Shown here: positions 22,268-59,547 of the stretch, in pieces
How positions within the stretch are numbered: position 1 is the first letter of the stretch
Layout of the letters: the number at the start of each line of letters is the position of its first letter
Source: a virus
Reading direction: 5' to 3' (one strand)
Length of the DNA stretch: 64,000 nt
Virus record (IMG/VR): IMGVR_UViG_3300042464_000422
Position numbers and translations under genes: made by a program
Notes under the pieces: generated by a model
Database searches by the model: none
Seen by the model: only the letters and a program-made list of their open reading frames with translations
What the model was told of the DNA's origin: nothing

Positions 22268-22720
22268 ATGAAGAGAATATTTTTTTTATTAGTATTATCC
22301 TTGGGTTTGTTTTCTTGTGAGAAACAAGTAATTGAACCGGGAGTGTATCAACCACCGGTTCCTACTAACCCAAACCCACAGGATACTACAGAGTATTCAT
22401 TGGTTGGACAAACTTGGGTGATCAAACAATACCGTATTGGTGAAATGGGATTACCATTGGATATGACCCCACCTGATACAATTAAATTTATCACAAAGAG
22501 TGTGTATAAGTATAATTCAATGGGACCATATAACTATGGGTTTAATTCAGTTGGAACTGTTTATTCTTTAACATTGAATTACACAATATTTGGGTATTTG
22601 ACTGGTAATCTGAATAAGGTTAATTTAGAAATGGGATATATAATTGGGGGTAGATTTACAGATATTTCAATAGGTGTGGTTAATCCTCCAAACTACTACC
22701 TTTGGATTGAAAGAATATAG
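22268..22720 (+). CDS. putative lipoprotein (signal peptide + lipobox LFSC)
   Basis: MKRIFFLLVLSLGLFSCEKQ is an SPII lipobox. Confidence 0.55.
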   Translation: MKRIFFLLVLSLGLFSCEKQVIEPGVYQPPVPTNPNPQDTTEYSLVGQTWVIKQYRIGEMGLPLDMTPPDTIKFITKSVYKYNSMGPYNYGFNSVGTVYSLTLNYTIFGYLTGNLNKVNLEMGYIIGGRFTDISIGVVNPPNYYLWIERI

Positions 22721-28689: not shown

Positions 28690-29823
28690 ATGGAAAATTT
28701 AAATAGTGTATGTTATGTTGGTGTGATCGGAGAGATATTACCAATAGATGGAGCGGATAACATTGAACTTGCATTGGTTGGTGGTTGGCAAGCCATTACT
28801 AAGAAAGGTGAATATAGTGTTGGTGATAAGGTTGTTGTTGCAACTACCGATGCGGTAATCCCTGTTGAATTATCTGATTTAATGGGCGTAACTAATTACC
28901 TAAGAAAAGGTCAAAGAGTTCGCACCGTTAAACTTCGTAAAGTTTACTCTGAGTGTTTGTTAATACCATTCAAATACTTGGCACCAAGGTCTTTGGAGAA
29001 CAATGTAAATGAAGGTCACGACATGATGGAACTGTTAGGTATCACTAAATATGAACCACCAGTTAAGATGGTTGAGATGAGTGTTGGTGGAAGAAAATTC
29101 AAATACCACCAAAACCCGAACTTCCACATTTACTACAAATTCCCAAATATGAAGAACGTACCTGATATGTTCAATGAGGAGGATGAAGTATGTATCACTC
29201 GTAAGTTACACGGAACCAATGCTCGTTACGGTATTGTGAGAAAGAAAAAACTTTCAATCCTTGATAAGATTAAAGGGTGGTTTGGTAATCAATGGGTTGG
29301 TTACGAATACGTTTATGGATCCCACAACGTTGAGAAGGGATCTGACTCTCAAGGTTTTTATGCAACTGATGTGTGGAAAACAGTTGCGGAAAAATATGAT
29401 ATCCGTAAAAAACTTTGGGATCACGTTAAAGATACTTTTGATCCTAATGATGTTGGTTCAGGATTTATCATCTATGGTGAAATCTATGGACACGGAATAC
29501 AAAAGAATTACGACTATGGTTTAACTGAAATCCGTTTTGCGGGATTTGACGTTGAGGTTGATGGATCTTATGTTGATAACATTTACCAATCAACTCATTT
29601 TAAATGTTTAGGTTTAGAAGAAGTTGAAACTTTATATTCAGGTCTTTGGTCAAAAGAAGAACAAGATAAATATGTGTTTAATAACAACATTCAAGGAACT
29701 AAAGTTCCTCACGAAGGTATTGTTGTAAAATGTTTATCTGGTAATCGTCATAAGATTGGAAAAGTAATCAACCCTGATTATTTAATTTACGGTGAAAAAA
29801 ATAACGTAGGTGACTCCCATTAA
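28690..29823 (+). CDS. ATP-dependent RNA ligase (Rnl2-like nucleotidyltransferase) with an N-terminal OB/tRNA-binding-like domain
   Basis: Motif I RKLHGTNARYG (KxHGxN), motif III FIIYGEIYG, motif V PHEGIVVK. The N-terminus (ILPIDGADNIELALVGGWQAI) resembles Trbp111-type OB folds. Confidence 0.7.
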   Translation: MENLNSVCYVGVIGEILPIDGADNIELALVGGWQAITKKGEYSVGDKVVVATTDAVIPVELSDLMGVTNYLRKGQRVRTVKLRKVYSECLLIPFKYLAPRSLENNVNEGHDMMELLGITKYEPPVKMVEMSVGGRKFKYHQNPNFHIYYKFPNMKNVPDMFNEEDEVCITRKLHGTNARYGIVRKKKLSILDKIKGWFGNQWVGYEYVYGSHNVEKGSDSQGFYATDVWKTVAEKYDIRKKLWDHVKDTFDPNDVGSGFIIYGEIYGHGIQKNYDYGLTEIRFAGFDVEVDGSYVDNIYQSTHFKCLGLEEVETLYSGLWSKEEQDKYVFNNNIQGTKVPHEGIVVKCLSGNRHKIGKVINPDYLIYGEKNNVGDSH

Positions 29824-31886: not shown

Positions 31887-33743
31887 ATGGGAAAAATAAT
31901 TGGAATTGACTTGGGAACAACTAACTCGTGTGTTGCCGTGATGGAAGGAAAGGAACCTGTAGTTATTACAAATAACGAAGGTAAACGAACAACGCCATCT
32001 GTAATCGGATTCATTAAAGATGGTGAAAGAAAGATTGGGGATCCGGCTAAACGACAAGCGGTAACCAATCCTGAAAAAACCGTACATTCAATTAAACGAT
32101 TTATGGGAACAAGTTTTACTGAATCTAAAAATGAGGTAAAGAAAGTTCCTTATAAAGTTGTAAAAGGAGATGGTGGATCACCAAGAGTGGATATTGATAA
32201 ACGACAGTATTCTCCGCAGGAACTTTCCGCAATGGTTTTACAAAAAATGAAACAAACTGCTGAGGATTATTTGGGTGAGACGGTTACTGAGGCGGTTATT
32301 ACGGTACCAGCGTATTTTAATGATGCTCAACGACAGGCAACCAAAGAAGCGGGTGAGATTGCGGGTTTGGAAGTAAAACGTATCATTAATGAGCCAACAG
32401 CGGCGGCATTAGCATATGGTTTAGATAAAATGTCTAAAGATATGGTAGTGGTTGTGTTTGACTGTGGTGGTGGTACACACGATGTTTCTATTCTTGAATT
32501 AGGTGATGGTGTATTTGAAGTATTGTCTACTGATGGTGATACTCACTTAGGTGGTGATGACTTTGATCAGGTTATTATTGAATGGTTAGCAAATGAATTC
32601 AAAGATGAGAATGGAATTGATGTGACCAAGGATCCGATGGCGTTACAACGTTTACGAGAAGCGGCAGAAAAGGCAAAAGTTGAATTATCTTCAACCTCAT
32701 CAACGGAAATTAATTTACCGTATTTGATGCCGGTAGATGGGATGCCAAAACACTTGGTTAGAACTTTATCAAAATCTAAATTTGAACAACTGGCAGATTC
32801 ATTAATCAAACGAACTATTGAACCTTGTAAGACAGCGTTGAAAAATGCTAAGATGGATGTGTCTGATGTTGATGAAATTATCTTGGTTGGAGGTACAACA
32901 AGAATTCCGGCAATTCAAGAAGCGGTTAAACAATTCTTTGGTAAGGAACCATCTAAAGGTGTTAATCCTGATGAGGTAGTTGCTTTAGGTGCGGCGATCC
33001 AAGGTGGTGTACTTGCTGGTGATGTTAAAGATGTCTTATTATTAGATGTGACTCCATTATCTTTAGGTATTGAAACTATGGGTGGAGTTATGACTAAATT
33101 GATTGATGCTAACACCACGATCCCAACTAAAAAATCTCAGGTGTTCTCAACGGCAGTAGATAATCAACCAACAGTTGAGATCCACGTACTTCAGGGAGAA
33201 CGAGCAATGGCAAAAGATAATAAAACCATTGGTAAGTTCAATTTAGATGGTGTTCCACCAGCGATGAGAGGTGTTCCACAAATTGAGGTTACGTTTGATA
33301 TTGATGCGAATGGTATTATCAATGTTTCTGCAATGGATAAAGGTACAAACAAACAACAAACAATTCGTATCGAAGCGTCCTCAGGTTTATCAAAAGAAGA
33401 GATTGAGAAAATGAAACAAGAAGCTGAGTTAAATGCCGAACAGGATAAAAAACTCAGAGAAGATGCTGAAGTTCTAAACACGGCTGATGGTACAATCTTC
33501 CAAACTGAGAAGTCAATCAAAGATTTGGAAGATAAATTAACTGAAGAACAAAAGAGTGAACTTGATGGATTACTTGGAACGTTAAAAGAATCTTACGCAA
33601 AAAAAGACATTGAGAAGATTAATCAAGATATTGAAAATCTTAATAGTCAGTTCCACCATATTAGTCAATCATTGTACGAACAAACTACAACTGAAGAAGG
33701 TAATGATGCTCCGTCTGACGTTGAATTTGAAGAAGTACTTTAA
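31887..33743 (+). CDS. dnaK: molecular chaperone DnaK (Hsp70)
   Basis: Collinear Hsp70 signatures: [36 protein letters not shown], the substrate-binding domain and a C-terminal lid. Confidence 0.95.
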
Positions 33744-37359: not shown

Positions 37360-37596
37360 ATGGACCCAATCAAAGCAAATTTATTAAGTCAAACTTTGGA
37401 AATGACATACACCCAAGAGGCGGATTGTTGTACAACTGAGGAACAATATTTAACGATCAAAACAGATAATGGTGGTGGTGGTGATTTTTATGTCATTGAG
37501 ACAAAAAGATGGGCATTTGATACTGTTGAAGAGATCATTGAATTATTAAATCAATTTAAAGAAAAACACCTTAAAATAAAAGAAGAAAATCTATGA
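37360..37596 (+). CDS. hypothetical protein
   Basis: 78-aa ORF. Confidence 0.45.
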   Translation: MDPIKANLLSQTLEMTYTQEADCCTTEEQYLTIKTDNGGGGDFYVIETKRWAFDTVEEIIELLNQFKEKHLKIKEENL

Positions 37597-37835
37597 AAAA
37601 GTTAATATTAATTACTTTAGTTGGGATAGTATTGTTTTCTTGTAAGAGAAAAGAATATAAATATGAAATTCACGGGAAAGTTTATATCCCAACCTCAGGG
37701 TTGAACCCAATGCATGATGCAATATGGTATACGGATACAATTAGTTTTGATGGTGACACATTATATTATTTTAATAGTGATGGGTCTGAAGTAAGAATTT
37801 ATCCACCGTATATTTTAAAAGATAATTCAAAATGA
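37593..37835 (+). CDS. putative lipoprotein (lipobox VLFSC)
   Basis: MKKLILITLVGIVLFSCKRK. Confidence 0.5.
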   Translation: MKKLILITLVGIVLFSCKRKEYKYEIHGKVYIPTSGLNPMHDAIWYTDTISFDGDTLYYFNSDGSEVRIYPPYILKDNSK

Positions 37836-45963: not shown

Positions 45964-46110
45964 ATGACGGAAGAAGAAAAGGATAACAGAATAAAAGAAC
46001 TTGAGGAATTTCTTGAAGAGGTTATTGAACATCCTTATATGTATGGGTCACACATTTGGGAAGAAGGATGTAAATTATTAAACAAAGATGAAGATGAACA
46101 AACTAGATAA
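45964..46110 (+). CDS. small acidic hypothetical protein (48 aa), missed by the track
   Basis: MTEEEKDNRIKELEEFLEEVIEHPYMYGSHIWEEGCKLLNKDEDEQTR; it fills the gap before thyA. Confidence 0.3.
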   Translation: MTEEEKDNRIKELEEFLEEVIEHPYMYGSHIWEEGCKLLNKDEDEQTR

Positions 46111-47221
46111 ACAATACCAAGAATTACTCCAAACCATATTGGATTACGGAGTTGAAAAGAAAGACAGAACAGGTACAGGAACCAAAAGTATTTTTGGTTA
46201 TACCATTCGTCATAATATGCAAGATGGATTTCCAGTTCTTACAACCAAGAAAATGGCTTGGAAACAAATTGTAACTGAATTATTATGGTTTTTAAGAGGA
46301 GATACCAACATTAAGTTTTTAGTTGACAATGGTTGTCACATTTGGGATGGTGATTGCTTTGCCAATTACATTAGAAATTTTTCTAAATATGTAGATTCAT
46401 TACCTGAAAATGGTGAAGCAGAATTTATTATTAACAAAGATAAGTTCATCAACAAAATCAAAACAGATGATGAATTTGCAAAGAAGTGGGGTGAATTAGG
46501 TCCTGTGTATGGTAAGCAATGGAGACATTGGACGGTATCCACAAATGACGAGTTAGATCCTAATCGAAAAATACCTGGAGGGTACAGATACAGCAATGGA
46601 GAATATACGGAAACCTACATAGACCAAATCGCAAACCTAATCAACGACCTTAAAACAAACCCAGACAGTAGACGTTTGATGGTAAATGCTTGGAATGTTG
46701 GAGAGATGGACCAAATGACTCTTCCACCTTGTCATTATGGATTTCAAGTTTATACAAGAGAGTTGAGTTTGAATGAGAAATGGGAACAATATACTAAATC
46801 AGGACTAAATATAGAAATAAATGGAACACCATTAGAATTAAAACATATGGGAACTCCATTCTATCCTAAATTATTACCACAACGAGCAATCTCTTTAATG
46901 TGGAATCAACGTTCAGTAGATACATTCTTAGGTTTACCATTCAACATCGCGTCTTACGGATTATTACTTACAATCTTGGCAAAAGAAGTGAATATGGTTC
47001 CTGACCAATTGATTGGAAACTTGGGTGATACTCATTTATACTTAAATCATATTGAACAGGCAAAAGAACAGATTGGTAGAGAACCATTTGAGTTACCAAC
47101 ACTAAATCAGTTCCCAACTTATGAAGGATCAAGACCAAGTATTGAATCTTATGTTGTTGGTGATTTTACACTAAAAGATTATCAATCACACCCCTCTATT
47201 AAAGCACCACTATCAAATTAA
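46088..47221 (+). CDS. thyA: thymidylate synthase (ThyA) with three insertions
   Basis: Landmarks collinear with E. coli ThyA: DRTGTGT, LPPCH..FQ.Y, QRS.D.FLGLPFNIASY (Asn retained), GD.HLY.NH. Confidence 0.9.
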   Translation: MKMNKLDKQYQELLQTILDYGVEKKDRTGTGTKSIFGYTIRHNMQDGFPVLTTKKMAWKQIVTELLWFLRGDTNIKFLVDNGCHIWDGDCFANYIRNFSKYVDSLPENGEAEFIINKDKFINKIKTDDEFAKKWGELGPVYGKQWRHWTVSTNDELDPNRKIPGGYRYSNGEYTETYIDQIANLINDLKTNPDSRRLMVNAWNVGEMDQMTLPPCHYGFQVYTRELSLNEKWEQYTKSGLNIEINGTPLELKHMGTPFYPKLLPQRAISLMWNQRSVDTFLGLPFNIASYGLLLTILAKEVNMVPDQLIGNLGDTHLYLNHIEQAKEQIGREPFELPTLNQFPTYEGSRPSIESYVVGDFTLKDYQSHPSIKAPLSN

Positions 47222-47460: not shown

Positions 47461-48183
47461 ATGGATTACGGAAAAGAGTTTAGAAGTTTTGCAAAGAGCA
47501 AAGGAATTAATTCACTGGTATTAGATCAGTTTGAAAATGGTTTAACACCATACATTTTGGAAGAACGAGAAATGAGAGCAACGCAAATGGATATTTTCTC
47601 CAGATTGATGCGTGATCGTATCTTATGGGTATCAGGACCTGTTAATCAATATATGTCTGATATTGTTCAGGCTCAATTATTGTTTCTTGATTCTGTTGAG
47701 AAAAAAGATATCACATTATACATTAATTCACCTGGTGGATCTGTGTTATGTGGGTTAGGAATTGTTGATCTTATGAACTTTGTAAATTCAGATGTGGCGA
47801 CAACAAACATTGGGATGTGTGCATCAATGGGATCGGTATTATTATCTGCGGGAGCAAAAGGAAAACGATCATCTTTGATTTATTCAAAAGTAATGACACA
47901 CCAAGTGAGTCATGGTACGCAAGGTAATGTTCAGGATACACGTATTAATCAAATGGAAGCGGAGAAGTACAATTATGTATTATTCAAAATGATTGCTGAA
48001 AATTGCGGTAAATCTTTTGAAGAAGTGTTGGAGTTTTCAAGACGAGATCGTTGGTACAATTCTGATGAAGCATTGGCATTCGGTTTAGTTGATGAAGTTA
48101 TTGGAGCGGATAAAAATAAATCTATAACACAAATGTTAGAAGGATTTGATGATTACTACCAAAAAGAAGTAATGACTAAATGA
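47461..48183 (+). CDS. clpP: ClpP-family serine protease
   Basis: TTNIGMCASMGSVLLSAGAKGKR (active-site Ser context) and MTHQ (His) are collinear with ClpP. INSPGG near the N-terminus. Confidence 0.8.
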   Translation: MDYGKEFRSFAKSKGINSLVLDQFENGLTPYILEEREMRATQMDIFSRLMRDRILWVSGPVNQYMSDIVQAQLLFLDSVEKKDITLYINSPGGSVLCGLGIVDLMNFVNSDVATTNIGMCASMGSVLLSAGAKGKRSSLIYSKVMTHQVSHGTQGNVQDTRINQMEAEKYNYVLFKMIAENCGKSFEEVLEFSRRDRWYNSDEALAFGLVDEVIGADKNKSITQMLEGFDDYYQKEVMTK

Positions 48184-48815: not shown

Positions 48816-50726
48816 ATGTCTAAATTATTAAAAGTATTATTTACTTTATTTTTATTATCTCCGTTATTTGTGTTTTCACAAGTTCCTGCAGCACCATCTA
48901 ATGGTTTATGGGGAATTATTGCATCACAATATCAAGTCGGAACAACGGCTCAAGGAACTACTACAGCCAAAATTACATTACAAAATACGACCCTTACAAA
49001 ATTTGCGGGGGTCCAATTCAGGGTCTTCTACGATAAAGTTGCCTTTACAAACGCAACTGTATCGTTGATAGGTTCAACAACTAACTTAGATCTTCAATCT
49101 ATAACCAAGACTGCAAATGGTTATATAACTGTTACTTTAAGTTATACAGGTCCAAGTGCAACGTACACAATTGCAAATGGTGAAAGATTTTTAATCACTT
49201 TTACTCACGCACCTGCCGCTACGTTCAACAACTTAGCTTCCATCAGTAACTTAACATGGACAGGGGTTCAAACATTCACACCATATGCGGCAAAACAAGA
49301 TGGTATGGACACTACGTTAAGTGTTCATAACTACGGTGGTGTATTCACTCCTGTAAACTTTGCTTACAACGGAACATTTACAAACGTAACTGGTACGGCA
49401 GCAAAAACATTACACTTGGCTTTGGAAAGAAGACCATTCGGTGGGAATACTTGGACACAACACTCCACATATGTTACAGATAACAACGGCGCCTTTGCTA
49501 TTTCAGTTCCTTTAGATACTACTTATTGGGATGTGCGTTTAGCGGTTAAAGGAGACACTATGGGAGTTGGAAACATTATCTCATCAACAGATGCTCAGTT
49601 AATCAATCAATGGGTATTGGGTAACGGTAATATGACAGGATTTGACTACTATACTGCAGATGTTAATGGTTCAAACAACACAACTATCTCTGATGTATGG
49701 GGTGTGTTTGGTAGAGTATCGGGTAGATTTACACAATGGCCTAACAACATAGAAGATGTTAAATTCTTCACGGCTTCTGAATACACAACAATCAACGGTT
49801 CAGCAACCAACTACACGTCAACTATCGCAGGTGTAACTAACTTCACATTTGAAATTTTACCGGGTCAACCATCCTCTGTAACATATTATGTAATGGTACC
49901 GGGTGATGCGAATGGAACAGGTTATAACATGGCTCGTGTAACTCCAATTGAAGTATTGGTTGGACCAGCACCTGGATTACAAAATCAAATCTATAATGTT
50001 ATTGACACAAAAGTAGAATATGATTTTCCAACACAATCTATTGAAGTAAATGTACCAAACATTTCAGTACAAGCAGGTAACTTAGTTGAACTTCCTGTGA
50101 CTCTTAAAACTAATGGTATTGAATTAAGTTCATTACAATTTGGTTTAAAATATGATGATACCTTATTACAATTTAAAGGTGTTATTTCATCTGCGGGAGC
50201 AATGAAATGGTTGACATACATTAACCCTAATGATAGTGAAGTTGATTGGGGTGGTTTTGATCCTACAAATAACACTAATACATTAAAAGATGGTGATCAA
50301 GTAGTTACATTACAATTCATAGCGTTACAGCCACAAAATTTATGGGAAGCAAGTCCTTTATATACCACAAGAAAATTTGCCGGAAATACATACTCAAGTG
50401 ATTTAACATTGACTCCGACAAATGGAATTCTTCAAGTATTAAAAATGGAAGGTGGTGAAATATTAAGTGGTAATAATATGGAGGTATATCCTAACCCATA
50501 TCAAGATGAAGTTACAATCACATTTAAAGTTGAAGAAACAACAAATGCTACATTATCTGTGTATGATTTGGTTGGTAGAAAATTAGTTACAATCTTAGAT
50601 ACACAAATACCTGATGGAATTTATAACTACACTAAAAATTTAGGGGAATTAAAACCTGGTGTATATATAGTGAAACTTTCTGTTGAAAATGGAACACCAT
50701 CATTTGAGAGAATAGTAAAACAATAA
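48816..50726 (+). CDS. secreted protein with a signal peptide and a C-terminal T9SS (Por) sorting domain
   Basis: N-terminal MSKLLKVLFTLFLLSPLFVFSQ. C-terminal ...MEVYPNPYQDEVTITFKV...LSVYDLVGRKLV...GVYIVKLSVENGTPSFERIVKQ matches the T9SS type-A CTD pattern. Confidence 0.75.
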   Translation: MSKLLKVLFTLFLLSPLFVFSQVPAAPSNGLWGIIASQYQVGTTAQGTTTAKITLQNTTLTKFAGVQFRVFYDKVAFTNATVSLIGSTTNLDLQSITKTANGYITVTLSYTGPSATYTIANGERFLITFTHAPAATFNNLASISNLTWTGVQTFTPYAAKQDGMDTTLSVHNYGGVFTPVNFAYNGTFTNVTGTAAKTLHLALERRPFGGNTWTQHSTYVTDNNGAFAISVPLDTTYWDVRLAVKGDTMGVGNIISSTDAQLINQWVLGNGNMTGFDYYTADVNGSNNTTISDVWGVFGRVSGRFTQWPNNIEDVKFFTASEYTTINGSATNYTSTIAGVTNFTFEILPGQPSSVTYYVMVPGDANGTGYNMARVTPIEVLVGPAPGLQNQIYNVIDTKVEYDFPTQSIEVNVPNISVQAGNLVELPVTLKTNGIELSSLQFGLKYDDTLLQFKGVISSAGAMKWLTYINPNDSEVDWGGFDPTNNTNTLKDGDQVVTLQFIALQPQNLWEASPLYTTRKFAGNTYSSDLTLTPTNGILQVLKMEGGEILSGNNMEVYPNPYQDEVTITFKVEETTNATLSVYDLVGRKLVTILDTQIPDGIYNYTKNLGELKPGVYIVKLSVENGTPSFERIVKQ

Positions 50727-50744
50727 ACAAATAAAATAACAAAA

Positions 50745-51083
50745 ATGTCAGAAGAACAAACACAAGAAACGAACGACGGAACTTGGTCAGGATTGAAAAA
50801 AACAATCATTGGAACATTAACAACTGTAATTGCTGGTGGTGGAGTATGGGTTAGTACGTTAATATTTGGTGGGGGAGATGAACCTGCTGAAGAAACAAAA
50901 ACAGAACAACCTGCAAGTCAACCTGTAATTAATCTTAATGTACAGCAAAATCAAGAAAATAAACAAAAAACTGAGAACAATAACGGTGGTGGTGTAGTTC
51001 GTGAGAGAATTATCGAAAGACCGGCACAACAACCGCAAGCACAACCTGAAAAACCAAAAAAGGTTGAGGAAGAATCTTGGTAA
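50745..51083 (+). CDS. single-TM protein with a disordered Q/P/E-rich tail
   Basis: TM segment GTLTTVIAGGGVWVSTLIFGG, then low complexity. Confidence 0.45.
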   Translation: MSEEQTQETNDGTWSGLKKTIIGTLTTVIAGGGVWVSTLIFGGGDEPAEETKTEQPASQPVINLNVQQNQENKQKTENNNGGGVVRERIIERPAQQPQAQPEKPKKVEEESW

Positions 51084-51100
51084 TAAACAATTAAAATAAA

Positions 51101-51463
51101 ATGAAAAAAATGTCATTCTTAAAAAATTTATTAAACAGTGGATCAAATGAGTTTACGAAAGTAGAAAACTCACAACGTTTTAACTTTATGTTACAACAAA
51201 TGCAATCAAACAGATGGAAGATCACACTTATCATCTTATTAACATTTTTCTTTATCATCTTCGGTATTGTGTTATCGGTTATGTTTAAAGCATCGATCCA
51301 AGAATCTTGGAAAGAATTGTTATTGTTACTTTTAGGTGCATTCGTTGGTAACTTAAACAAAGTAATTGACTATTGGTTCTCTAATGAGGATAGAGATAAA
51401 ATGTTAGTTCAAAAAATGGACGAGGAAGATAACTCATCTGAATCTGATGTAACAGAAATCTAA
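51101..51463 (+). CDS. small membrane protein
   Basis: TM segments ITLIILLTFFFIIFGIVLSVMF and LLLLLLGAFVG. Confidence 0.45.
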   Translation: MKKMSFLKNLLNSGSNEFTKVENSQRFNFMLQQMQSNRWKITLIILLTFFFIIFGIVLSVMFKASIQESWKELLLLLLGAFVGNLNKVIDYWFSNEDRDKMLVQKMDEEDNSSESDVTEI

Positions 51464-51464
51464 T

Positions 51465-52208
51465 ATGAAAAGAATAGTATTCATACTTTCAATATTCACA
51501 TTATTTAGTTGTAAAACTTTACAAGCCCAGCCCCCACAAAACAGTGGGGGTATTGGTTCTGTAAAAACTGAACAATATCAAGCTGAATTTGAAAAGAAAC
51601 AATCAATTACAGATGTTGCCGAATACACTGATACAATACAAGTTCCTATCCAATTGTTAAAGATTGGTATTAACGAAGAATTGTATGAGTTATATCCTGA
51701 ACTTAAAGACAAACGAGTTGGTTTGGGGGTAACAAACATTGTAATTGAGTATTTGGAGTATACGGGTAGATTTGTATTTACCGAAGAAAAGGAGGACATC
51801 AAACAACGAATGATTGCTCAGGACAAAGCATCTGACAAAGGAATTTCGGTTAATAAAATTGATGTGAAAGGAAATGTAATTTTAGCAAAATATTTTGTGT
51901 ATATTGAGGTTTATGACTTTAGTGTTTCGGAAGATGAAGTGGTAAAAGTTAATGGGCAGCAGACAACAACACAAACAACAAGATTAGGATTACAAATTAA
52001 ATTTGTAGATGCTGAGACAAGTCAAGTGATCGTTGGATCTGGATTAGGTGAGGCAAGTACAGTAAAAACCTCAACTATCTTGGGGGACATCTCAGACGAT
52101 GTTAAATTCAACCAATCAACAATTGGTATAACAACAAAGAAGGCGTTGGAAACCGCATCTTCAAGGGTAGTGACACGACTTATTACAAAAGGTGTCTTTA
52201 AAAATTGA
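51465..52208 (+). CDS. CsgG-like lipoprotein (lipobox LFSC)
   Basis: Lipobox MKRIVFILSIFTLFSC. LGVTNIVIEYLEYTGRFVFTEEKEDIKQRM resembles the CsgG-family signature (..TDMLITAL..SGRF.VLER..L). Confidence 0.45.
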   Translation: MKRIVFILSIFTLFSCKTLQAQPPQNSGGIGSVKTEQYQAEFEKKQSITDVAEYTDTIQVPIQLLKIGINEELYELYPELKDKRVGLGVTNIVIEYLEYTGRFVFTEEKEDIKQRMIAQDKASDKGISVNKIDVKGNVILAKYFVYIEVYDFSVSEDEVVKVNGQQTTTQTTRLGLQIKFVDAETSQVIVGSGLGEASTVKTSTILGDISDDVKFNQSTIGITTKKALETASSRVVTRLITKGVFKN

Positions 52209-53800
52209 GATTAAATGTATTCATACTATTGTTCTTTTGCGTGTTTGGGTTCCTAAACCTGAACGCGCAAACTTACAATTATAGTTACTCTGATCCCTGT
52301 ACAGGGAATGTTAAAACGATAGTAGTACCAATTAATGGAAACGTAACAGTTTCGTACTACGGATCAATCGGGTCGTTTAGTCAAAACGATTTTACAAACG
52401 GAACATTTGATGCTTGGACTAATAACATATTTTCACAATATGGTACGAATAGTCCTTGCTCTGAAATAGTGGGGTTAGGGACTGCGGTTAATGTGACTCA
52501 AGGTACTGCCTTAAATGTCATTGGAATTCTTAATTCACTCTCATCAATTTCTGATTTAGCTGGCGGATCTACCAATTTAATAGGTGGATCTGTAACTACC
52601 ATTAATAATACGGGTGGGAATAATAATTCTAAAAATAACAAAGGAGGGAATAATTCCCAAAATGGAAGTGGTAATAATACAACAAATACTAATAACACCA
52701 CAACCAATAATAATCAAAATCAAACAAATGGAACAGGTAACACTAATGAAGGAAGTACAACCACTTCTGGAACAAATGAAACAAGTTCAAACGGAGGAAA
52801 TGGAACCCCTAATCAAAATGTTGGAACTCAAAATCCAACACAAGCAGGAGGAACTACAACTCAAGGTGGATCAAATGAAAATGGAAATACATCGTCTAAC
52901 ACGACTGTAAATGGTGAAACATCTGAAACACCAATAAATAATCAAACAACAACTGAAAATGGAAATAATGGTAGCAATCCTAGTGTCCCTAATAATGGGA
53001 GTAATGGTGGTAATGGGGGTAATGGGTCTGGTTCAGGAAATAATCAGACGGAAGAAGGTAATACGACAACTGAAGGAACGGAAGAAGGTGGACAAACAAA
53101 TATAACGGGTGGAGCAACCACAACGGTTAAAGCGTCCCCAACAAGTAAGGAAGGTGGGAAACCTACTATCGTTGCAAGTGGTGATTTTGTTGGTTTTAAC
53201 TTTAGGAATTCTGAGGTTAACACAGGTTTAAAGGTTACAGGTGGTTACACCGCAATGAGATGGGATGGTAAAAGAAGTTCAGGTATTTTGGGGGATTACA
53301 CATCCGCTCTTAGAGGTCCCAATATAACTGCTTTCTATGCCTTTATTAGATCTAAATCAATTGTGATAGGGTCAGGTACTTTAACTATTGGATTTGAGGG
53401 GAATAAATCATTATATGGTACAATAGCGGTAGGTCAAATGTTTTCATTTAAAAAACCTAAATCACTTAAACTATTATATATGGGTACGGTATCTTATGGT
53501 CAAGTATATAGAGAATCTTTTTTAGGTACCGCATTAATTGCGGGAGCAACTTATGATTTGAAGATCGGAAAACGATTAGATATTAAATTAATGAACTTAC
53601 TGGTTTACGCACCTTATGTTAGTTATTATAATGATGTTGTATTAAAATCACCTTATGTAATGTTACCAAGTATTGGGACAAACATAAAATTAACTAAAAA
53701 GTTTAAATTTAACATAAACGCCGGTGGTGCTTGGGATTTGAAAACAAGTGCTTTAAATTATACAGTAACGTGTGGAGCAAGAATGTTAGTAGGACAGTAA
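52205..53800 (+). CDS. secreted N/G/T/S-rich low-complexity protein with a C-terminal beta-barrel-like domain (TTG start)
   Basis: Signal peptide MRLNVFILLFFCVFGFLNLNAQ, about 250 aa of N/G/T-rich low complexity, and a C-terminus with alternating hydrophobic beta-strand periodicity. Confidence 0.55.
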   Translation: MRLNVFILLFFCVFGFLNLNAQTYNYSYSDPCTGNVKTIVVPINGNVTVSYYGSIGSFSQNDFTNGTFDAWTNNIFSQYGTNSPCSEIVGLGTAVNVTQGTALNVIGILNSLSSISDLAGGSTNLIGGSVTTINNTGGNNNSKNNKGGNNSQNGSGNNTTNTNNTTTNNNQNQTNGTGNTNEGSTTTSGTNETSSNGGNGTPNQNVGTQNPTQAGGTTTQGGSNENGNTSSNTTVNGETSETPINNQTTTENGNNGSNPSVPNNGSNGGNGGNGSGSGNNQTEEGNTTTEGTEEGGQTNITGGATTTVKASPTSKEGGKPTIVASGDFVGFNFRNSEVNTGLKVTGGYTAMRWDGKRSSGILGDYTSALRGPNITAFYAFIRSKSIVIGSGTLTIGFEGNKSLYGTIAVGQMFSFKKPKSLKLLYMGTVSYGQVYRESFLGTALIAGATYDLKIGKRLDIKLMNLLVYAPYVSYYNDVVLKSPYVMLPSIGTNIKLTKKFKFNINAGGAWDLKTSALNYTVTCGARMLVGQ

Positions 53801-55458
53801 TAACAATAACGTTATTATTATTTTCATTTAATGGAATGTCTCAGAATTTTACATATTCGGGATACATTTATAATGCGGATGGAACAGGTGCGGTTAATGT
53901 ACCTGTTAAGTTATATAAAAGAACTACACCTACATTGGCGGGGTTTACGTCTCAAACAAATTACAACGGACATTCATATTATCGTTCAACAGGATCAATG
54001 ACTTGGACAAGTGCAAAAACTGCTTGTGAAAATATGGGTGGACATTTGGCAACAGTTTCAAACGCCGCTGAAAATAACTTTTTATTTAATACTTGGCCAT
54101 CGGGTTGGATTGGATATTACCAAGATAGAGTTGCGGGATATACTTACTCCGAACCATTGGGTGGATATAGATGGACAGAAACTAAGGTCACAAGTGGTTT
54201 AGGTGCTGACTATGATGTCTCATCTTATACATCAAGCCCAACTTTAGTTGATATTAAATCATCGGTAAACGCGACATTATATAATTCCCCTATCTACTCA
54301 AGTACGGGAGGCAAATATTTAACATTCAATGGATCTAATCAATATGCAATAACTAATAATTTGGCATCACAATTTTCTTCAACTGCAATATCGGTAGTTG
54401 CTTGGGTTTACCCAACAGGAAATGGTGTGATTGCATCTGAATTAAATGTTCCAAGTACATCATCGGGTTGGCACGAATCAATTATGGAAATTACAGGGTC
54501 AAATACTTTACGAGTAGGATTTTGGAATGGTATAGGTATTACACAATTAAGTACACCAATTACATTAAACACATGGAATATGGTTTGTCTTACTTATGAT
54601 GGAACGACAATGAGAGGTTATTTAAATAACGTAAGTTTTGGAAGTGTAAACTTTTCTCGTCAAGCTGCATTTATTCATGGAGGAAATGGACAACAACATT
54701 TTGCATTTGGGTTGAGTGATGCAACCAATATGGGTTCAGGTGCGTTCGGGTCATTTAGATTAGGTGTCATCCAATTCTTTGACCGAGCAATTACCGTAGA
54801 TGAAATTGATAGAACATTTAATTTATATGCTTATAGATACAGAACAAATCAATATGCTAATTGGAATCCAGGTGAACCAAATAACTCAAGTAATGAAGAT
54901 TATACACAATTTGTTGGTGGTGGTATGTGGAATGATTTGGCGAACTCATCTTTACCTTATGTTATAGAATTTGATTATATTAACGACTTTACACCTTGGG
55001 TACTACACCAAACGGTTTATACTAATTCATCCGGTTATTATAGTTTTTCACAACCAACAAACCCAGCAACAGAATGGTACATACAATACGATGCAATGAC
55101 ACCAGTAACTACATTACAAGTAACGGATATGGTTGAAGTTTCTAAATTGGTTTTGGGAACAACTGCAATTAAAAGTATTCACTATCATAGATATGATGTT
55201 AATTATGATGGTAAAATAAATGTGGCTGATGAAAATTATATTAATCTAAGACGTTATGGTTTTAAATTAGGATGGATTACAATGACACCTTCTAGATTAT
55301 TCACACCTATCCAATATACAACATTAACAACAAATACATCAGACATGAGAATATCAATTCCTGGTGTATCATCTATAACAATAAACTCACCTGTAAGTGG
55401 GGGATCACAAAACTACTATCTGATTGCTCCTGGGTATAAAACAACCGTAAATTATTAA
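53731..55458 (+). CDS. secreted C-type-lectin / LamG-like / dockerin-like multidomain protein (start may be GTG 53770)
   Basis: Two C-type-lectin-like segments (WTSAKTACENMGGHLATV...; NWNPGEPNN...WNDL), a ConA-like segment (LTFNGSNQYAITNN...), and a dockerin/EF-hand-like YDVNYDGKINVADE. Signal peptide ...LLLFSFNGMSQ. Confidence 0.6.
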   Translation: MGFENKCFKLYSNVWSKNVSRTVITITLLLFSFNGMSQNFTYSGYIYNADGTGAVNVPVKLYKRTTPTLAGFTSQTNYNGHSYYRSTGSMTWTSAKTACENMGGHLATVSNAAENNFLFNTWPSGWIGYYQDRVAGYTYSEPLGGYRWTETKVTSGLGADYDVSSYTSSPTLVDIKSSVNATLYNSPIYSSTGGKYLTFNGSNQYAITNNLASQFSSTAISVVAWVYPTGNGVIASELNVPSTSSGWHESIMEITGSNTLRVGFWNGIGITQLSTPITLNTWNMVCLTYDGTTMRGYLNNVSFGSVNFSRQAAFIHGGNGQQHFAFGLSDATNMGSGAFGSFRLGVIQFFDRAITVDEIDRTFNLYAYRYRTNQYANWNPGEPNNSSNEDYTQFVGGGMWNDLANSSLPYVIEFDYINDFTPWVLHQTVYTNSSGYYSFSQPTNPATEWYIQYDAMTPVTTLQVTDMVEVSKLVLGTTAIKSIHYHRYDVNYDGKINVADENYINLRRYGFKLGWITMTPSRLFTPIQYTTLTTNTSDMRISIPGVSSITINSPVSGGSQNYYLIAPGYKTTVNY

Positions 55459-55459
55459 A

Positions 55460-56047
55460 ATGAAAAATTTATTACTAACGTTATTATTAACATTACCATT
55501 ATTCGTATTCAGTCAGAAAACATTAAGAGATTCAATTTACATCAAAACTGATATGTTTGAGATTGTTTATTCTGAAAAATTACAACAACCTAAATTCATA
55601 CGTTATAGCGTTCCATGTCCTAATGGGACTGCTTCAAGAAAAGGGATGGATTTTTATGTTTGTGATTCAATCCTTACTTCAGATAATAAGGATTATGAAA
55701 ATAATCCATACGACAAAGGTCATTTAGCTCCAGCGGCAAACTTTAGTTGTACAAAAGATATGATGTATAGGACTTTTACGTATTTGAATTGTTCTTTACA
55801 GCAAGAAAATCTTAATAGAACTACGTGGAGATTATTAGAAGCGAGAGAAAGAGAATTAGCAAAGACACAGACGGTAACGGTTGAAATCCGATGCGTATTT
55901 ACGTCTAAATCAATTGTTTTACCTTCAGGTGCTACAATTCCTGATGGATATTATAAAACAATAAAATATGGTAAAACAATGGAAAGATATTACTTTAAGA
56001 ATGAGAAACCATTATCAACCGATTATACAAAATACAAAATAAAATGA
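55460..56047 (+). CDS. secreted DNA/RNA non-specific endonuclease (Serratia-nuclease family)
   Basis: Signal peptide ...LFVFSQ; active-site-like DKGHLAPAANF corresponds to the family's DRGH motif. Confidence 0.65.
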   Translation: MKNLLLTLLLTLPLFVFSQKTLRDSIYIKTDMFEIVYSEKLQQPKFIRYSVPCPNGTASRKGMDFYVCDSILTSDNKDYENNPYDKGHLAPAANFSCTKDMMYRTFTYLNCSLQQENLNRTTWRLLEARERELAKTQTVTVEIRCVFTSKSIVLPSGATIPDGYYKTIKYGKTMERYYFKNEKPLSTDYTKYKIK

Positions 56048-56493
56048 AAAAATTATTATTTACCTTGATTATGCTATTTCCGTTTTTTATTTTTTCACAA
56101 GAGTGTGTTAAAGTTGATACGGTATTTGTAACGGCAAAACTAAGAGAACTTGGATCAAGAGACATTAGATTTGGAATAAAACAAATAGTGGAAGAAGAAC
56201 TTTCTCAAAAGTTTTGTTTATCAGATGATGGTGAACCAATTAAAGTTGAGGTGTTTTACTTTGGACTTCCAAAAACAACAATAAGAGTTGCTGGAGTTGA
56301 AAAAACTAATACAATAACACAGGTTGGTGTACGTTTACATTATAAAGGAGTTAAGTATGAAGGTATTGGTGAGTCAGATACTGAAATCAGAGCAATTATG
56401 ATTGAAGTTCAAGAAGGATCCATACCGTTTGAAAAAATGACAGTATCGTCATCATTAAAAAAAGCGATACACGAAGCGGCAATTAAATTATGA
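56044..56493 (+). CDS. secreted hypothetical protein
   Basis: Signal peptide MKKLLFTLIMLFPFFIFSQ with an ATGA overlap. Confidence 0.5.
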   Translation: MKKLLFTLIMLFPFFIFSQECVKVDTVFVTAKLRELGSRDIRFGIKQIVEEELSQKFCLSDDGEPIKVEVFYFGLPKTTIRVAGVEKTNTITQVGVRLHYKGVKYEGIGESDTEIRAIMIEVQEGSIPFEKMTVSSSLKKAIHEAAIKL

Positions 56494-56945
56494 AAAAATT
56501 ATTATCAGTTTTATTATTTTTATTTATTTCAATACATTCATTTGGGCAATTAAAAATCACTGATGTAGGTGATGGGTGGAAAAATAAAGTTGATAGTGCG
56601 TTAAAGATAATTCAAACGTATGATATTGAAAAATATAATGTAATCCTTGAAACTTGTACTCTTATTGGATATTGGAATGAATCCTTCTCAACTACTGAGG
56701 GGGATTCTGTCATTTTAATATCTACCAAAGACATTAATAATGAGAGTATAAATAATATTGCCGCAATATTAGTCCATGAATCCATGCATCTGTTTATCAA
56801 ACAGTTATATGCTAAAATTAATCCAAATAGAGAAGAAACTATTTGTTATGTGTATGAATTAAATTTCCTATACAAAGTCCCAAATGTTGAACCTTGGTTG
56901 ATTGAAAATGCCACGAGTAAAATAAAATATTATTCAAAAGGGTAG
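56490..56945 (+). CDS. secreted HExxH protein (putative zinc metallopeptidase)
   Basis: Signal peptide ...IHSFGQ and AAILVHESMHLF (HExxH). Confidence 0.45.
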   Translation: MKKLLSVLLFLFISIHSFGQLKITDVGDGWKNKVDSALKIIQTYDIEKYNVILETCTLIGYWNESFSTTEGDSVILISTKDINNESINNIAAILVHESMHLFIKQLYAKINPNREETICYVYELNFLYKVPNVEPWLIENATSKIKYYSKG

Positions 56946-56997: not shown

Positions 56998-57225
56998 ATG
57001 GAAGCAATTTTAAAATTTAATTTACCTGATGATACCCACGAATTTAAAATGGCGTTAGATGGATCAAAATGGTCCAGTGCGATGTGGGAACTTGAACAAT
57101 GGTTAAGATCTGAAACAAAATATAATTCGGAGGCATTATCACAAGAAAAATACGATGCTTATTGTGAAATTAGAGATAAGATATATAGTATTTTAAATAA
57201 AGATGGAATTAGTTTTGATGATTAA
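56998..57225 (+). CDS. hypothetical protein
   Basis: 75-aa ORF. Confidence 0.4.
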   Translation: MEAILKFNLPDDTHEFKMALDGSKWSSAMWELEQWLRSETKYNSEALSQEKYDAYCEIRDKIYSILNKDGISFDD

Positions 57226-57502
57226 GAATATGGAAAAAAATAACATTAACGAAAATAATAGTCCCGAACTATTAATTGTTTTAATATTGGGTATTGCATT
57301 AGGTTTGTTTTTAATCTCTTGTGATGGACAAAAACCACAAACAATAGAAGAACCCATAGGGTTAAGACAGAAATCTGACGTTCGTTACAAAAATGTAACA
57401 GAATTCACATATGGAGGTTGTGAATACATTAAAGTAGGTTATGGAGATTGTGCTTGGGGTTCACATAAAGGAAATTGTACAAACCCAATACATAATAATT
57501 AA
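57203..57502 (+). CDS. small single-TM/secreted protein with a Cys-rich tail
   Basis: LLIVLILGIALGLFLISC is hydrophobic, followed by four Cys. Confidence 0.4.
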   Translation: MELVLMIKNMEKNNINENNSPELLIVLILGIALGLFLISCDGQKPQTIEEPIGLRQKSDVRYKNVTEFTYGGCEYIKVGYGDCAWGSHKGNCTNPIHNN

Positions 57503-58357: not shown

Positions 58358-59050
58358 ATGAAAATAAGTATAATATCTGACACACACAACAAACACAAGT
58401 TTGTACATCATGATTTACCTGGTGGTGATTTGTTATTACACGCAGGTGACATAAGTTCTATGGGTTATGAACACGAGATACGTGAGTTTGCTGCTTGGTA
58501 TGATAAGATTGTTACTTATGGTCATAAAGTATTCATTGCTGGTAATCACGATTGGGGGTTCCAAAACAATGAAGAAAAAATAAAAGGATTGTTAACGGGA
58601 TATAAAACTATTGAGTATATCCAAGACGAATTAATAACCATACAAGATGGTGATGGACCTGAAGTTAAGATTTGGGGTAGTCCTTGGCAACCTGAGTTCT
58701 ACAATTGGGCATTTAACTTACCACGAAATGGTGAGGAGTTAAAGGCGGTTTGGGATATGATACCTGAAGGTATTGACATCTTAATCACTCATGGGCCTGC
58801 TTGGGGTTTCTTAGATGATGTTGAAGGTCGTAGAGGACAACACTTAGGTTGTGAGTTACTTGCGGAACGTATTAAACAAATTAAACCTAAGATTCATATT
58901 TGTGGTCATATTCACTCAGGTCACGGACACTATTATGACGGACATACACACTACTTCAATGCATCTGTGTTGAACGAACGATACCTTTATTCACATACAC
59001 CATGGAATATTGATTGGGATCCAATAACTAATGAAATTAAATTTTTATAA
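58358..59050 (+). CDS. calcineurin-like metallophosphoesterase
   Basis: ISDTHN (DxH), HAGDIS (GD), AGNHD, ITHGP, CGHIHSGHGH. Confidence 0.8.
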   Translation: MKISIISDTHNKHKFVHHDLPGGDLLLHAGDISSMGYEHEIREFAAWYDKIVTYGHKVFIAGNHDWGFQNNEEKIKGLLTGYKTIEYIQDELITIQDGDGPEVKIWGSPWQPEFYNWAFNLPRNGEELKAVWDMIPEGIDILITHGPAWGFLDDVEGRRGQHLGCELLAERIKQIKPKIHICGHIHSGHGHYYDGHTHYFNASVLNERYLYSHTPWNIDWDPITNEIKFL

Positions 59051-59547
59051 TGGAAAAGGCACATTTTATTGAGAACAGAATTTTTAGAGATAAAAGAGGA
59101 ACATTTAGTCCTTTAGATCTGGCTAAACTTGATAAAAATTGGGTCCAAAGTAATATTAGTACAAATCCCCAAAAATTTACACTCAGAGGATTACATTTTC
59201 AAAAGAATGAATACGCTCAAGCCAAGTTAATTAAAGTCATCTCAGGTAAGATATTGGACTTTGTGGTTGATATGAGGACCGTATCGGAAGATTATAATAA
59301 AGTATTCTTCTTTGAAATGAATGAGGGTGATGAGGTATATGTACCACGATACTTTGCTCATGGATTTATCACACTTGAAAAAGATACTGTGGTTCAATAT
59401 TTGGTTGATAATGATTATAGTCCTGAGAACGAAGGTGTGGTAGTTTGGTTATCTTATCCTGAAATTGAGAGACAAATAAAGAAGTTAGATACAACTTTTG
59501 ATAATGATAAGATCATTATTGAAAACAAAGATTTGATAGAAAAATAA
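59050..59547 (+). CDS. dTDP-4-dehydrorhamnose 3,5-epimerase-like cupin (RmlC-like)
   Basis: The pattern ENRIFRDKRGTF...LRGLHFQ...AQAKLIKVISGKILDFVVDMR fits RmlC-family epimerases. Confidence 0.65.
   Translation: MEKAHFIENRIFRDKRGTFSPLDLAKLDKNWVQSNISTNPQKFTLRGLHFQKNEYAQAKLIKVISGKILDFVVDMRTVSEDYNKVFFFEMNEGDEVYVPRYFAHGFITLEKDTVVQYLVDNDYSPENEGVVVWLSYPEIERQIKKLDTTFDNDKIIIENKDLIEK

Follow-up and report, generated by a model that had tools for sequence, protein, structure and literature searches.

A conserved, operon-like module of predicted envelope proteins in large phages of probable Flavobacterium hosts

The placing of phage-made proteins in the envelope of the infected or lysogenic cell is well established for the coliphages, where T4 Imm and Sp, T5 Llp, lambda Lom and Bor, and Cor are membrane proteins, lipoproteins or barrels that alter the envelope and block further infection, and where periplasmic endonuclease I breaks down the DNA of excluded T4. 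Members of the genus Flavobacterium possess a type IX secretion system (T9SS); both genetics and T9SS mutants exist for this genus. One phage of the Bacteroidota has already been described as using this route: the 76 kb Cryophage encodes proteins with type-A T9SS C-terminal sorting domains (CTDs) that are presumed to be secreted by the host, its cargo being hypervariable single genes (an endoglucanase, a GH39 protein and a PA14 protein) for which competition between strains or superinfection exclusion was proposed as the role (Bellas et al. 2020, PMC7468147). Here we describe a block of nine genes, g1 to g9, at 48816-56945 on the + strand of a viral DNA stretch of 64,000 nucleotides (nt) (IMG/VR virus record IMGVR_UViG_3300042464_000422; the whole stretch is referred to as the window), which we read, tentatively, as an operon-like module that may remodel the envelope of the infected cell. 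A first-pass annotation of the window had singled out the same block as an island of exported proteins and considered phage export through the T9SS to be unusual, a judgement against which Cryophage stands as a precedent.

Layout, export signals and conservation of the block

All nine open reading frames (ORFs) were confirmed at their coordinates. They are separated by gaps or overlaps of -31 to +18 nt, the overlaps being 4-31 nt long, and with such tight spacing they look like one translationally coupled operon. Six of the products begin with a basic N-terminus followed by a hydrophobic stretch and a small residue-Gln pair, with predicted signal peptidase I junctions at VFS↓Q in g1, LNA↓Q in g5, GMS↓Q in g6, VFS↓Q in g7, IFS↓Q in g8 and SFG↓Q in g9. 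The N-terminus of g4 is a lipobox (LFS↓C), and g2 and g3 are membrane proteins with internal transmembrane helices and no cleavable signal; as a prediction from these features, Sec-type targeting of all nine products is strongly supported. The first-pass annotation had counted about eight consecutive exported proteins, five of them with signal peptides that follow the Q-rule of the Bacteroidota (Gln at +1 of the cleavage site); the island and the rule are both borne out, for nine ORFs and six signal peptides respectively, and the one LFSC lipoprotein and two membrane proteins that it listed are seen in the sequence as g4 and as g2 and g3. Its idea of a battery of proteins routed through host Sec and T9SS holds for the Sec half, the T9SS signal being found in g1 only, with the other products predicted to reside in the inner membrane, the periplasm or the outer membrane.

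The cleavage sites are predictions, made with a heuristic of hydrophobicity, charge and cleavage motif and supported mainly by their conservation in orthologues. Among orthologues that have a hydrophobic N-terminus the small residue-Gln pair is kept in 55/55 sequences for g1, 48/48 for g5, 22/22 for g7, 46/47 for g8 and 36/36 for g9, and in 52/52 of the g6 set, which includes some g1 sequences through a shared domain, meaning that the Q-rule is followed by the six products and by essentially all such orthologues. The heuristic finds nine signal-peptide-like N-termini among the 102 non-overlapping ORFs of the window, seven of which fall inside the g1-g9 block (hypergeometric P 6.8e-8 for this single block, and about 6e-6 when all block positions are allowed). 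The other two belong to small ORFs at 22268-22720 and 37593-37835 (+), both of which are of lipoprotein type with an LFSC lipobox. There is no enrichment of sigma-70 promoter-like sites (50 against an expected 46.8), terminator-like sites number 8 with 3.7 expected and none of them at the ends of the operon, and no clear Bacteroidota-type promoter was seen upstream of g1. The anatomy of the cassette, as set out here and below, is held with high confidence.

With g4 as the query, 75 viral loci were found in IMG/VR, on contigs of up to 373 kb, and in tblastn searches with the nine proteins the order g1-g2-(g3)-g4-g5-g6-(g7)-g8-(g9) was kept nearly everywhere over some 70 viral contigs, which answers the question of synteny in related phages that had been raised in the first pass. 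The flanks are syntenic too (thymidylate synthase, ClpP, a metallophosphoesterase and others), the window being collinear with locus L005, and this collinearity with IMG/VR viral contigs, together with a homologous cassette in a cultured phage, upholds the phage origin of the block. Counted over the 41 loci that have enough flanking sequence, g4 and g5 are present in 41, g1, g2 and g8 in 40, and g6 in 39; these six genes form the core, and the accessory parts are g3 (16/41), g7 (15/41), the semi-accessory g9 (31/41) and a LamG insert within g6 (9/41). The nuclease (g7), the HExxH protein (g9) and the LamG domain, all highlighted in the first pass, are thus accessory.

A megablast search of the island found no DNA match among 50,697 phage records, and homologues of g4 and g1 were found in that set only in the records of Flavobacterium phage vB_FspM_immuto (hereafter immuto), a T4-like myovirus of 160 kb. 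Its genes gp012-gp019 encode the nuclease (gp012), the lectin (gp013), a g1 that is split in two (gp014 and gp015), and the counterparts of g2 (gp016), g4 (gp017, 65% identity), g5 (gp018) and g8 (gp019). Only 16 of the 102 window ORFs have an immuto homologue, 7 of these 16 belong to the cassette, and the identity of g4 is the highest of all the shared proteins, which argues for selection on the block; it is kept across phages that are otherwise very divergent. The split of the g1 orthologue, into two ORFs in different frames, is found in all deposited immuto isolates (NC_055915.1 11598-13422), with the signal peptide and the dockerin-like part in gp014 and the cohesin and CTD, without a signal peptide, in gp015; it could reflect a pseudogene, a sequencing error or a frameshift.

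It could be argued that the block is passenger DNA, a host-derived island or moron that was recently acquired and is drifting without a role in infection; indeed the accessory members vary between loci, immuto has its g1 orthologue in two pieces and, as described below, three of the genes have bacterial relatives. We give this almost no credence, as gene order and signal peptides are kept over about 70 contigs at 38-96% protein identity and also between two phage lineages that share no more than the 16 ORFs above, the GC content of the block (0.32-0.36 in 2-kb windows) lies inside the range of the whole window (0.28-0.37), and isolate genomes contain no close relatives. A search of 185,579 species genomes of bacteria and archaea, one for each species, returned four matches, all of them on contigs of metagenome-assembled genomes (MAGs) assigned to Flavobacterium, Sediminibacterium and unclassified Bacteroidetes, which fits mis-binned phage DNA and a host from the Flavobacteriia or the wider Bacteroidota, and does not fit a normal host locus. 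From immuto and these MAG bins we infer that the host is Flavobacterium.

In immuto the cassette is surrounded by genes for replication and nucleotide metabolism, and the first annotated structural genes are about 65 kb away. This position bears on a further suggestion of the first pass, that the products are virion-associated adhesins or decoration, lectin and cohesin proteins that would be carried on the particles (for example by binding after lysis) and aid attachment to host glycans or mucus. Virions often carry lectin, Ig-like and carbohydrate-binding domains, and for crAss-like phages T9SS-CTD and BACON proteins have been noted in the literature close to head genes; however, Sec signals would take the products out of the cytoplasm, in which tailed phages are assembled, neither a cohesin nor a dockerin-like partner was found elsewhere in the immuto genome or in the remaining window, and an outer-membrane barrel, lipoproteins and inner-membrane proteins would make no sense as parts of a virion. 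A place on the particle is therefore regarded as extremely improbable.

Predicted products of the module

The first gene, g1 (48816..50726, +), encodes a protein of 636 amino acids (aa) that begins with the signal peptide and a beta-rich N-terminal region (aa 22-195). Next comes a domain that it has in common with g6 (aa 197-370), and behind this lie a cohesin domain and a type-A CTD of the T9SS. The CTD (50484..50723, +; aa 557-636, with a VYPNP motif) scores 49.9 bits with the hidden Markov model (HMM) TIGR04183 (curated cut-off 23, E 2.4e-13), the check that had been proposed for the T9SS product when it was first noticed, and 42.7 bits with PF18962 (Por_Secre_tail; cut-off 27, E 7.1e-11); it passes in 4 of the 5 full-length g1 orthologues and in immuto gp015, the fifth orthologue scoring 26.4 against the cut-off of 27. 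With a CTD of this type g1 should go to the host T9SS and be released or attached at the cell surface, and its prediction as a bona fide type-A cargo is strongly supported. The cohesin domain (50040..50330, +; aa 409-505) scores 34.8 bits with PF00963 against a gathering score of 24.1 (E 2.2e-8), is above the cut-off in all 5 full-length g1 orthologues, down to 39% identity, and in immuto gp015 (36.7-43.4 bits), and reaches 21.8 bits in the most divergent g1 sequence checked (24% identity); it also matches cohesin PDB 5N5P weakly. A second cohesin in the N-terminal region of g1 was considered and found to be unsupported (hhalign probability 6.7%).

The lectin gene, g6 (53770..55458, +), encodes 562 aa if translation begins at GTG 53770. 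The mechanical ORF has 575 aa and begins at TTG 53731, but the GTG (MWSKN...) is most likely the start because orthologues start at that codon, and the gene so read overlaps g5 by 31 nt. Its product is made up of a signal peptide, an N-terminal beta-sandwich, a C-type lectin domain that is split by a LamG domain, and a C-terminal dockerin-like domain. The lectin domain scores 35.1 bits with Lectin_C (PF00059; cut-off 22.6), its two halves (aa 64-118 and 361-390 in the 562-aa numbering) align to the carbohydrate-recognition domains of CD23, DC-SIGN and mannose-binding protein, and the EPN (GEPNN) and WND motifs that bind Ca and sugar are kept; in immuto gp013 the domain is unsplit and contiguous and scores 57.3 bits. 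The prediction of an EPN/WND C-type lectin is strongly supported. The insert (54328..54807, +; aa 200-359 of the 575-aa ORF) is a LamG/concanavalin-like domain of 160 aa that scores 46.6 bits with Laminin_G_3 (PF13385; cut-off 27.6, E 5.1e-12), so that the C-type-lectin/LamG protein named in the first pass is confirmed in both its parts.

The C-terminal domain of g6 (54946..55455, +; aa 406-575 of the 575-aa ORF) is homologous to aa 197-370 of g1 (hhalign E 1.6e-43), and within the latter a dockerin-like module lies at 49545..49742 (+; aa 244-309), with the helix-loop segments ISSTDAQLINQWVLG and ADVNGSNNTTISDVWGVFGRVSG. These residues match the dockerin chain PDB 4UYP_B weakly (phmmer, 66 residues, E 0.035), and Dockerin_1 (PF00404) reaches 16.6 bits in g6 and in one g1 orthologue, below the cut-off of 22.9, and therefore the shared domain is called dockerin-like and not dockerin. 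The second loop is canonical (DVNYDGKINVAD, in the g6 C-terminal domain) and the first is degenerate.

Of all the cassette proteins g4 (51465..52208, +; 247 aa) is the best conserved, with a median identity of 82% among loci. The lipobox is present in 38/57 of its orthologues, the remainder having an A↓Q site of signal peptidase I type. There are 4,107 close homologues in a set of 5.8 billion proteins, some of them named CsgG by the Joint Genome Institute, and a profile of g4 homologues matched only 249 clusters among 1.84 billion cluster representatives. Distant matches to this profile carry CsgG itself: P0280 has a g4-profile E of 5.7e-18 and 63.7 bits with PF03783 (CsgG), P0244 has 6.7e-29 and 27.2 bits, and P0317 and P0330, likewise full-length matches, are also above the PF03783 cut-off, the whole group ranging from E 6.7e-29 to 9.4e-12 and from 27 to 64 bits. 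Furthermore, bacterial relatives of g4 are labelled 'CsgG/HfaB family' by NCBI. Direct searches with the single g4 sequence and with a 17-member profile gave no match in Pfam (PF03783 included), NCBIfam, PHROG or PDB, g4 did not match CsgG structures by sequence, and hhalign against an E. coli CsgG sequence gave no significant match; the link is transitive, via profiles, and as such a divergent CsgG/HfaB-family lipoprotein is a strongly supported prediction. Domains of the g4 type are also found fused to a caspase (Peptidase_C14) or to a Ser/Thr kinase in the metagenomic proteins P0301, P0310, P0320 and P0317. A second CsgG-like protein, again strongly supported from profile comparison, is predicted for g8 (56044..56493, +; 149 aa), whose domain is shorter and, in hhalign (probability 96.6%, E 6e-10), homologous to g4 over the C-terminal two-thirds of the latter.

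Between them lies g5 (52205..53800, +; 531 aa), in which the signal peptide is followed by a conserved Cys-containing N-domain of about 105 aa (aa 22-126), a disordered linker (52583-53170, +; aa 127-322) and a C-terminal domain (53165..53797, +; aa 321-531). The linker is an Asn/Thr/Gly-rich region of low complexity (48 N, 43 T, 40 G and 19 S in 196 residues) that varies from 34 to 385 aa across orthologues, with both flanking domains conserved. The AlphaFold2 model of the C-terminal domain is a 12-stranded barrel (predicted local distance difference test (pLDDT) 75, predicted template modelling score 0.72) that resembles autotransporter barrels, the 12-stranded porins KdgM and NanC and the amyloid exporter FapF (19.1), and BFVD holds predicted phage proteins with similar barrels, some of which are named autotransporter beta-domain proteins. 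That g5 ends in a 12-stranded outer-membrane barrel is, going by this model, strongly supported. No Pfam or NCBIfam family, autotransporters included, matches g5, nor does any PDB sequence; its C-terminal domain is confined to this phage lineage, with just 81 clusters among 5.8e9 proteins, and its N-domain shows no relation to any other domain of the cassette. The segment before strand 1 is Gly/Thr/Ser-rich and modelled with low confidence, and no confident pore-plugging helix is seen in it. A FapF-like topology, in which the N-domain would be periplasmic, and an autotransporter-like one are equally compatible with these features.

The genomic context was inspected for six bacterial CsgG/HfaB relatives of g4, on contigs attributed to Cloacimonadota, 'Glassbacteria' and other or unnamed bacteria (Cloacimonadota and relatives within the Fibrobacterota-Chlorobiota-Bacteroidota (FCB) group), and a three-gene unit was found in 6/6. 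It is made up of a CsgG-like lipoprotein of about 230 aa, a signal-peptide protein of 296-424 aa and a protein of about 210 aa (L085 7001-9816, L087 7001-9275, L089 8001-10883, L090 8001-10844 and L091 8001-10786). The g4 HMM matches the first gene (E 7e-43 and 1e-47) and the g8 HMM the third (E 3.7e-17 and 6.7e-11; hhalign E 1.7e-14), and in the five contigs with DNA the middle proteins end in the hydrophobic-x-F tail of outer-membrane proteins (..GANYRF, ..GSSIRF, ..GAGWRF, ..GGTVLF and ..GAKSRF). Two T9SS-CTD genes immediately precede the trio in L085, one such gene adjoins it on the opposite strand in L089, in L091 cargo-like genes are farther off, and the other three contigs have no T9SS cargo gene near it. 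With such a counterpart the phage cassette looks captured from bacteria: it looks like a bacterial envelope module to which a T9SS cargo and a lectin with a dockerin-like tag, as well as small inner-membrane proteins and optional enzymes, were added.

Given these relatives, one may ask whether g4, g5 and g8, perhaps with g2 and g3, are a dedicated export or anchoring apparatus, related to the CsgG, HfaB and FapF systems, that displays an adhesin. Such an apparatus would export or anchor the N-domain and stalk of g5, the g6 lectin, or the g1 cargo after its transit through the T9SS, and infected cells would stick to particles, algae or neighbouring hosts, favouring transmission. The family link of g4 and g8 speaks for it, as does the likeness of the g5 barrel to autotransporter and FapF secretion barrels, the order of signal peptide, N-domain, disordered linker and 12-stranded barrel that g5 has in common with type Va autotransporters, a core of binding modules (cohesin, dockerin-like, EPN lectin) and not of enzymes, and the position of the bacterial trio beside T9SS cargo genes in L085 and L089. 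Nevertheless we think it unlikely, as g4 is without the long amphipathic transmembrane hairpins of the CsgG kind, g5 has neither an autotransporter Pfam match nor a confident alpha-helical plug before its barrel, the g5 linker is disordered by composition and very variable and not repeat-like as in curlins, and what a lytic phage would gain from adhesion is a matter of speculation. A bolder reading, in which g4-g5-g8 would be an unrecognised outer-membrane apparatus of FCB bacteria that was captured by large Flavobacterium phages and forms with the cargo and the lectin a cohesin-dockerin 'virocell coat' on infected cells, the lectin possibly travelling piggy-back on the T9SS cargo, we hold to be quite unlikely.

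The two small membrane proteins are predicted, with strong support from their sequences, to sit in the inner membrane. The bitopic g2 (50745..51083, +; 112 aa) has an acidic N-terminus, a KK pair and one Gly-rich transmembrane helix, followed by a Glu/Lys/Pro/Gln-rich C-terminal tail that is predicted to be periplasmic and has a conserved terminal Trp; the N-terminus and helix are highly conserved, and immuto gp016 is 57% identical. The variable g3 (51101..51463, +; 120 aa) has one clear transmembrane helix and a second short hydrophobic segment, and is assigned to no family.

Two further genes encode candidate enzymes. For g7 (55460..56047, +; 195 aa) the Serratia-type nuclease called in the first pass is upheld by 69.7 bits with PF01223 (Endonuclease_NS; cut-off 23), the protein being a DNA/RNA non-specific endonuclease with a conserved DKGH motif that also falls in phrog_14168 and has 54% identity to immuto gp012. 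The HExxH motif noticed in g9 (56490..56945, +; 151 aa) is invariant in its family (H96, E97 and H100), as is a downstream E115/E116; matches to zincin families (SprT-like, DA1-like, M76 and others of this kind) are all sub-threshold, with no metalloprotease family at threshold and no PDB match, and g9 is best described as a putative minimal zincin metalloprotease. Since g6, g7, g8 and g9 have neither a CTD nor a lipoprotein export signal, they are predicted to be periplasmic. The two enzymes invite a nutritional reading, in which nuclease, protease and glycan binders would harvest extracellular DNA, peptides and polysaccharide for the replication of a large genome; the lectin and LamG domains could bind carbohydrate, the region is rich in nucleotide-metabolism genes, such as the thymidylate synthase at 46088-47221, and immuto also carries PhoH. 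We consider scavenging very unlikely, however, as both enzymes are dispensable by the counts given above, the invariant core is without a catalytic domain, neither enzyme has a T9SS signal, which places them in the periplasm and not outside the cell, and the block contains no transporter gene.

About 260 nt past g9 a 99-aa ORF (57203-57502, +) has a hydrophobic stretch ending in a lipobox-like LISC, and in 16 related viral loci its synteny, directly downstream of g9, is kept; from these sequence features it may be a tenth exported member of the module.

Elsewhere in the window there are genes for a DnaJ-like protein (5044-5973), a DnaK-like protein (31887-33743) and ClpP (47461-48183, +), and for an RNA ligase (28690-29823, +; phrog_968, E 1.9e-58), and most other large ORFs have no PHROG match, which is typical where very large phages have accessory regions. 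The phage match closest to ClpP (62%) is in LR745206, a 635-kb uncultured huge phage, followed by other huge phages (including Lak) and short gut-phage contigs; a link to huge phages through ClpP was dropped, the 40 kb around the LR745206 match being without a cassette homologue. By eye, the ORF at 17746-18684 (+) is dehydratase/epimerase-like, with 27% identity to an immuto stretch that overlaps an annotated epimerase gene, and that at 59050-59547 (+) is dTDP-4-dehydrorhamnose-epimerase-like; immuto has an annotated block of glycosyltransferase and sugar-modifying genes (L082 23753-34569). Surface-glycan modification may accompany the envelope module.

A possible role in the infected cell

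The reading that we favour, to which we give close to, though short of, an even chance, is that the block is a conserved operon-like envelope module of large Flavobacterium phages that remodels the envelope of the infected cell, for exclusion or adhesion. Surface remodelling or superinfection exclusion had also been put forward in the first pass, and is plausible. Since the invariant core is made of parts for binding and scaffolding, with enzymes only as options, remodelling is favoured over catalysis. The module would be made in the infected cell and spread over all layers of its envelope, with g4, g5 and g8 as one outer-membrane platform inherited from the bacterial three-gene module. The N-domain of g5 would be displayed or tethered on its long disordered stalk, either outside, as in autotransporters, or in the periplasm, as in FapF, and the cohesin of g1 would bind the dockerin-like modules of g6 and of other g1 copies, so that a lectin-bearing protein layer could form on or under the outer membrane. 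The g7 nuclease and the zincin-like g9 would be optional periplasmic additions. A surface and periplasm altered in this way may then stop further phages, or progeny phages, from adsorbing or injecting productively, through masking of receptors or glycans and through the periplasmic nuclease; the next best purpose would be a changed adhesion of infected cells. That the parts form one assembly is possible, if somewhat doubtful, and superinfection exclusion as the specific purpose, which is argued by analogy with T4 Imm and Sp, T5 Llp and periplasmic endonuclease I and was also proposed for the Cryophage cargo, appears rather unlikely.

Several observations weigh against this reading. When g4 is aligned along the whole CsgG chain the two membrane-spanning hairpins, which in CsgG are long and amphipathic and build a 36-stranded pore, are 6-7 residues shorter and polar, which leaves a curli-type pore unsupported, and the AlphaFold model of g4 is poor (pLDDT 55). 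The middle gene of the bacterial trio is not significantly similar to the g5 barrel (hhalign E 0.005, probability 7%) and is a positional and architectural analogue only, T9SS cargo adjoins the trio in only 2 of the 6 bacterial contexts, and the dockerin-like matches, as noted, stay below the family cut-off. In immuto the half of g1 with the cohesin and CTD is without a signal peptide, and the cargo part may be dispensable there. Furthermore no signal for passage across the outer membrane is recognisable in g6, g7, g8 or g9, so that a lectin layer on the surface would need piggy-back export or release, which is not established for the T9SS. Finally, no homology to described exclusion or defence families was found (PADLOC gave no significant match), and the PHROGs matches of the cassette are to the nuclease family and to families of unknown function only. 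A spanin or lysis cassette was also considered and rejected, as the endolysin and holin of immuto lie outside the cassette (with the nearest endolysin some 6 kb downstream) and an o-spanin would be much smaller than g4.

Comparison with known systems

Phage envelope proteins, phage T9SS cargo and, in databases, phage outer-membrane barrels were already known. In the literature searched we found no description of a conserved multi-compartment operon of this kind, of a phage cohesin with dockerin-like modules or any phage cohesin-dockerin pair, of a C-type lectin split by LamG, of paired CsgG/HfaB-like proteins with a 12-stranded barrel, or of the bacterial three-gene counterpart; the cohesin and dockerin-like modules, the CsgG/HfaB-like pair, the barrel and the bacterial trio had likewise been missed in the first pass. 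If the cohesin and dockerin-like modules do work together, such a cohesin-dockerin pair would be without an earlier phage example in the literature searched. The cassette also gives a first biological context to an uncharacterised bacterial module (CsgG/HfaB-like protein, barrel, CsgG-like protein), and the system is experimentally tractable, with immuto and its host Flavobacterium sp. LMO8 in culture.

The two CsgG-like proteins, g4 and g8, belong by transitive profile matches to the same superfamily as the outer-membrane lipoproteins CsgG, of curli, and HfaB, which anchors the Caulobacter holdfast, and g4 is a lipoprotein of similar size; the cassette differs in having no homologues of CsgA, CsgB, CsgE, CsgF, HfaA or HfaD, and the partners here are a 12-stranded barrel and a truncated CsgG-like protein. 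Whilst g5 is built like the type Va autotransporters (EstA, Hbp and NalP) and ends in a barrel like that of FapF, its sequence identity to these proteins is 7-11%. The presence of a cohesin and of dockerin-like Ca-loop/helix pairs in one operon is reminiscent of non-cellulosomal cohesin-dockerin systems, from which it differs in that the dockerin-like modules are sub-threshold and lie inside a larger beta-rich domain, g1 holds both partners, and no glycoside hydrolases are attached. The g6 lectin aligns in both halves to the animal-type C-type lectins CD23, DC-SIGN and mannose-binding protein, with EPN and WND kept, but unlike these it is interrupted by the 160-aa LamG domain (absent in most orthologues), is joined to a dockerin-like domain and follows a signal peptide of bacterial type.

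As a phage-borne T9SS cargo, g1 is nearest to the Cryophage proteins, and differs from them in being a single cargo, with a cohesin and a dockerin-like module, with a fixed place in a conserved nine-gene operon whose phages are much larger; a lineage of large and environmentally common Flavobacterium phages would be borrowing the Bacteroidota-specific T9SS. The likeness to the T4, T5 and lambda proteins and Cor, with which we began, is that these too are made by the phage for the envelope of the infected or lysogenic cell. There is no sequence similarity to them, and those are one- or two-gene functions, the known cases of phage proteins planted in the envelope being mostly single proteins that block superinfection, whereas the block described here has six to nine genes, is predicted to reach every layer of the envelope, and adds T9SS, cohesin-dockerin and lectin parts; should these parts cooperate, it would be the most elaborate phage-directed rebuilding of a Gram-negative surface described so far.

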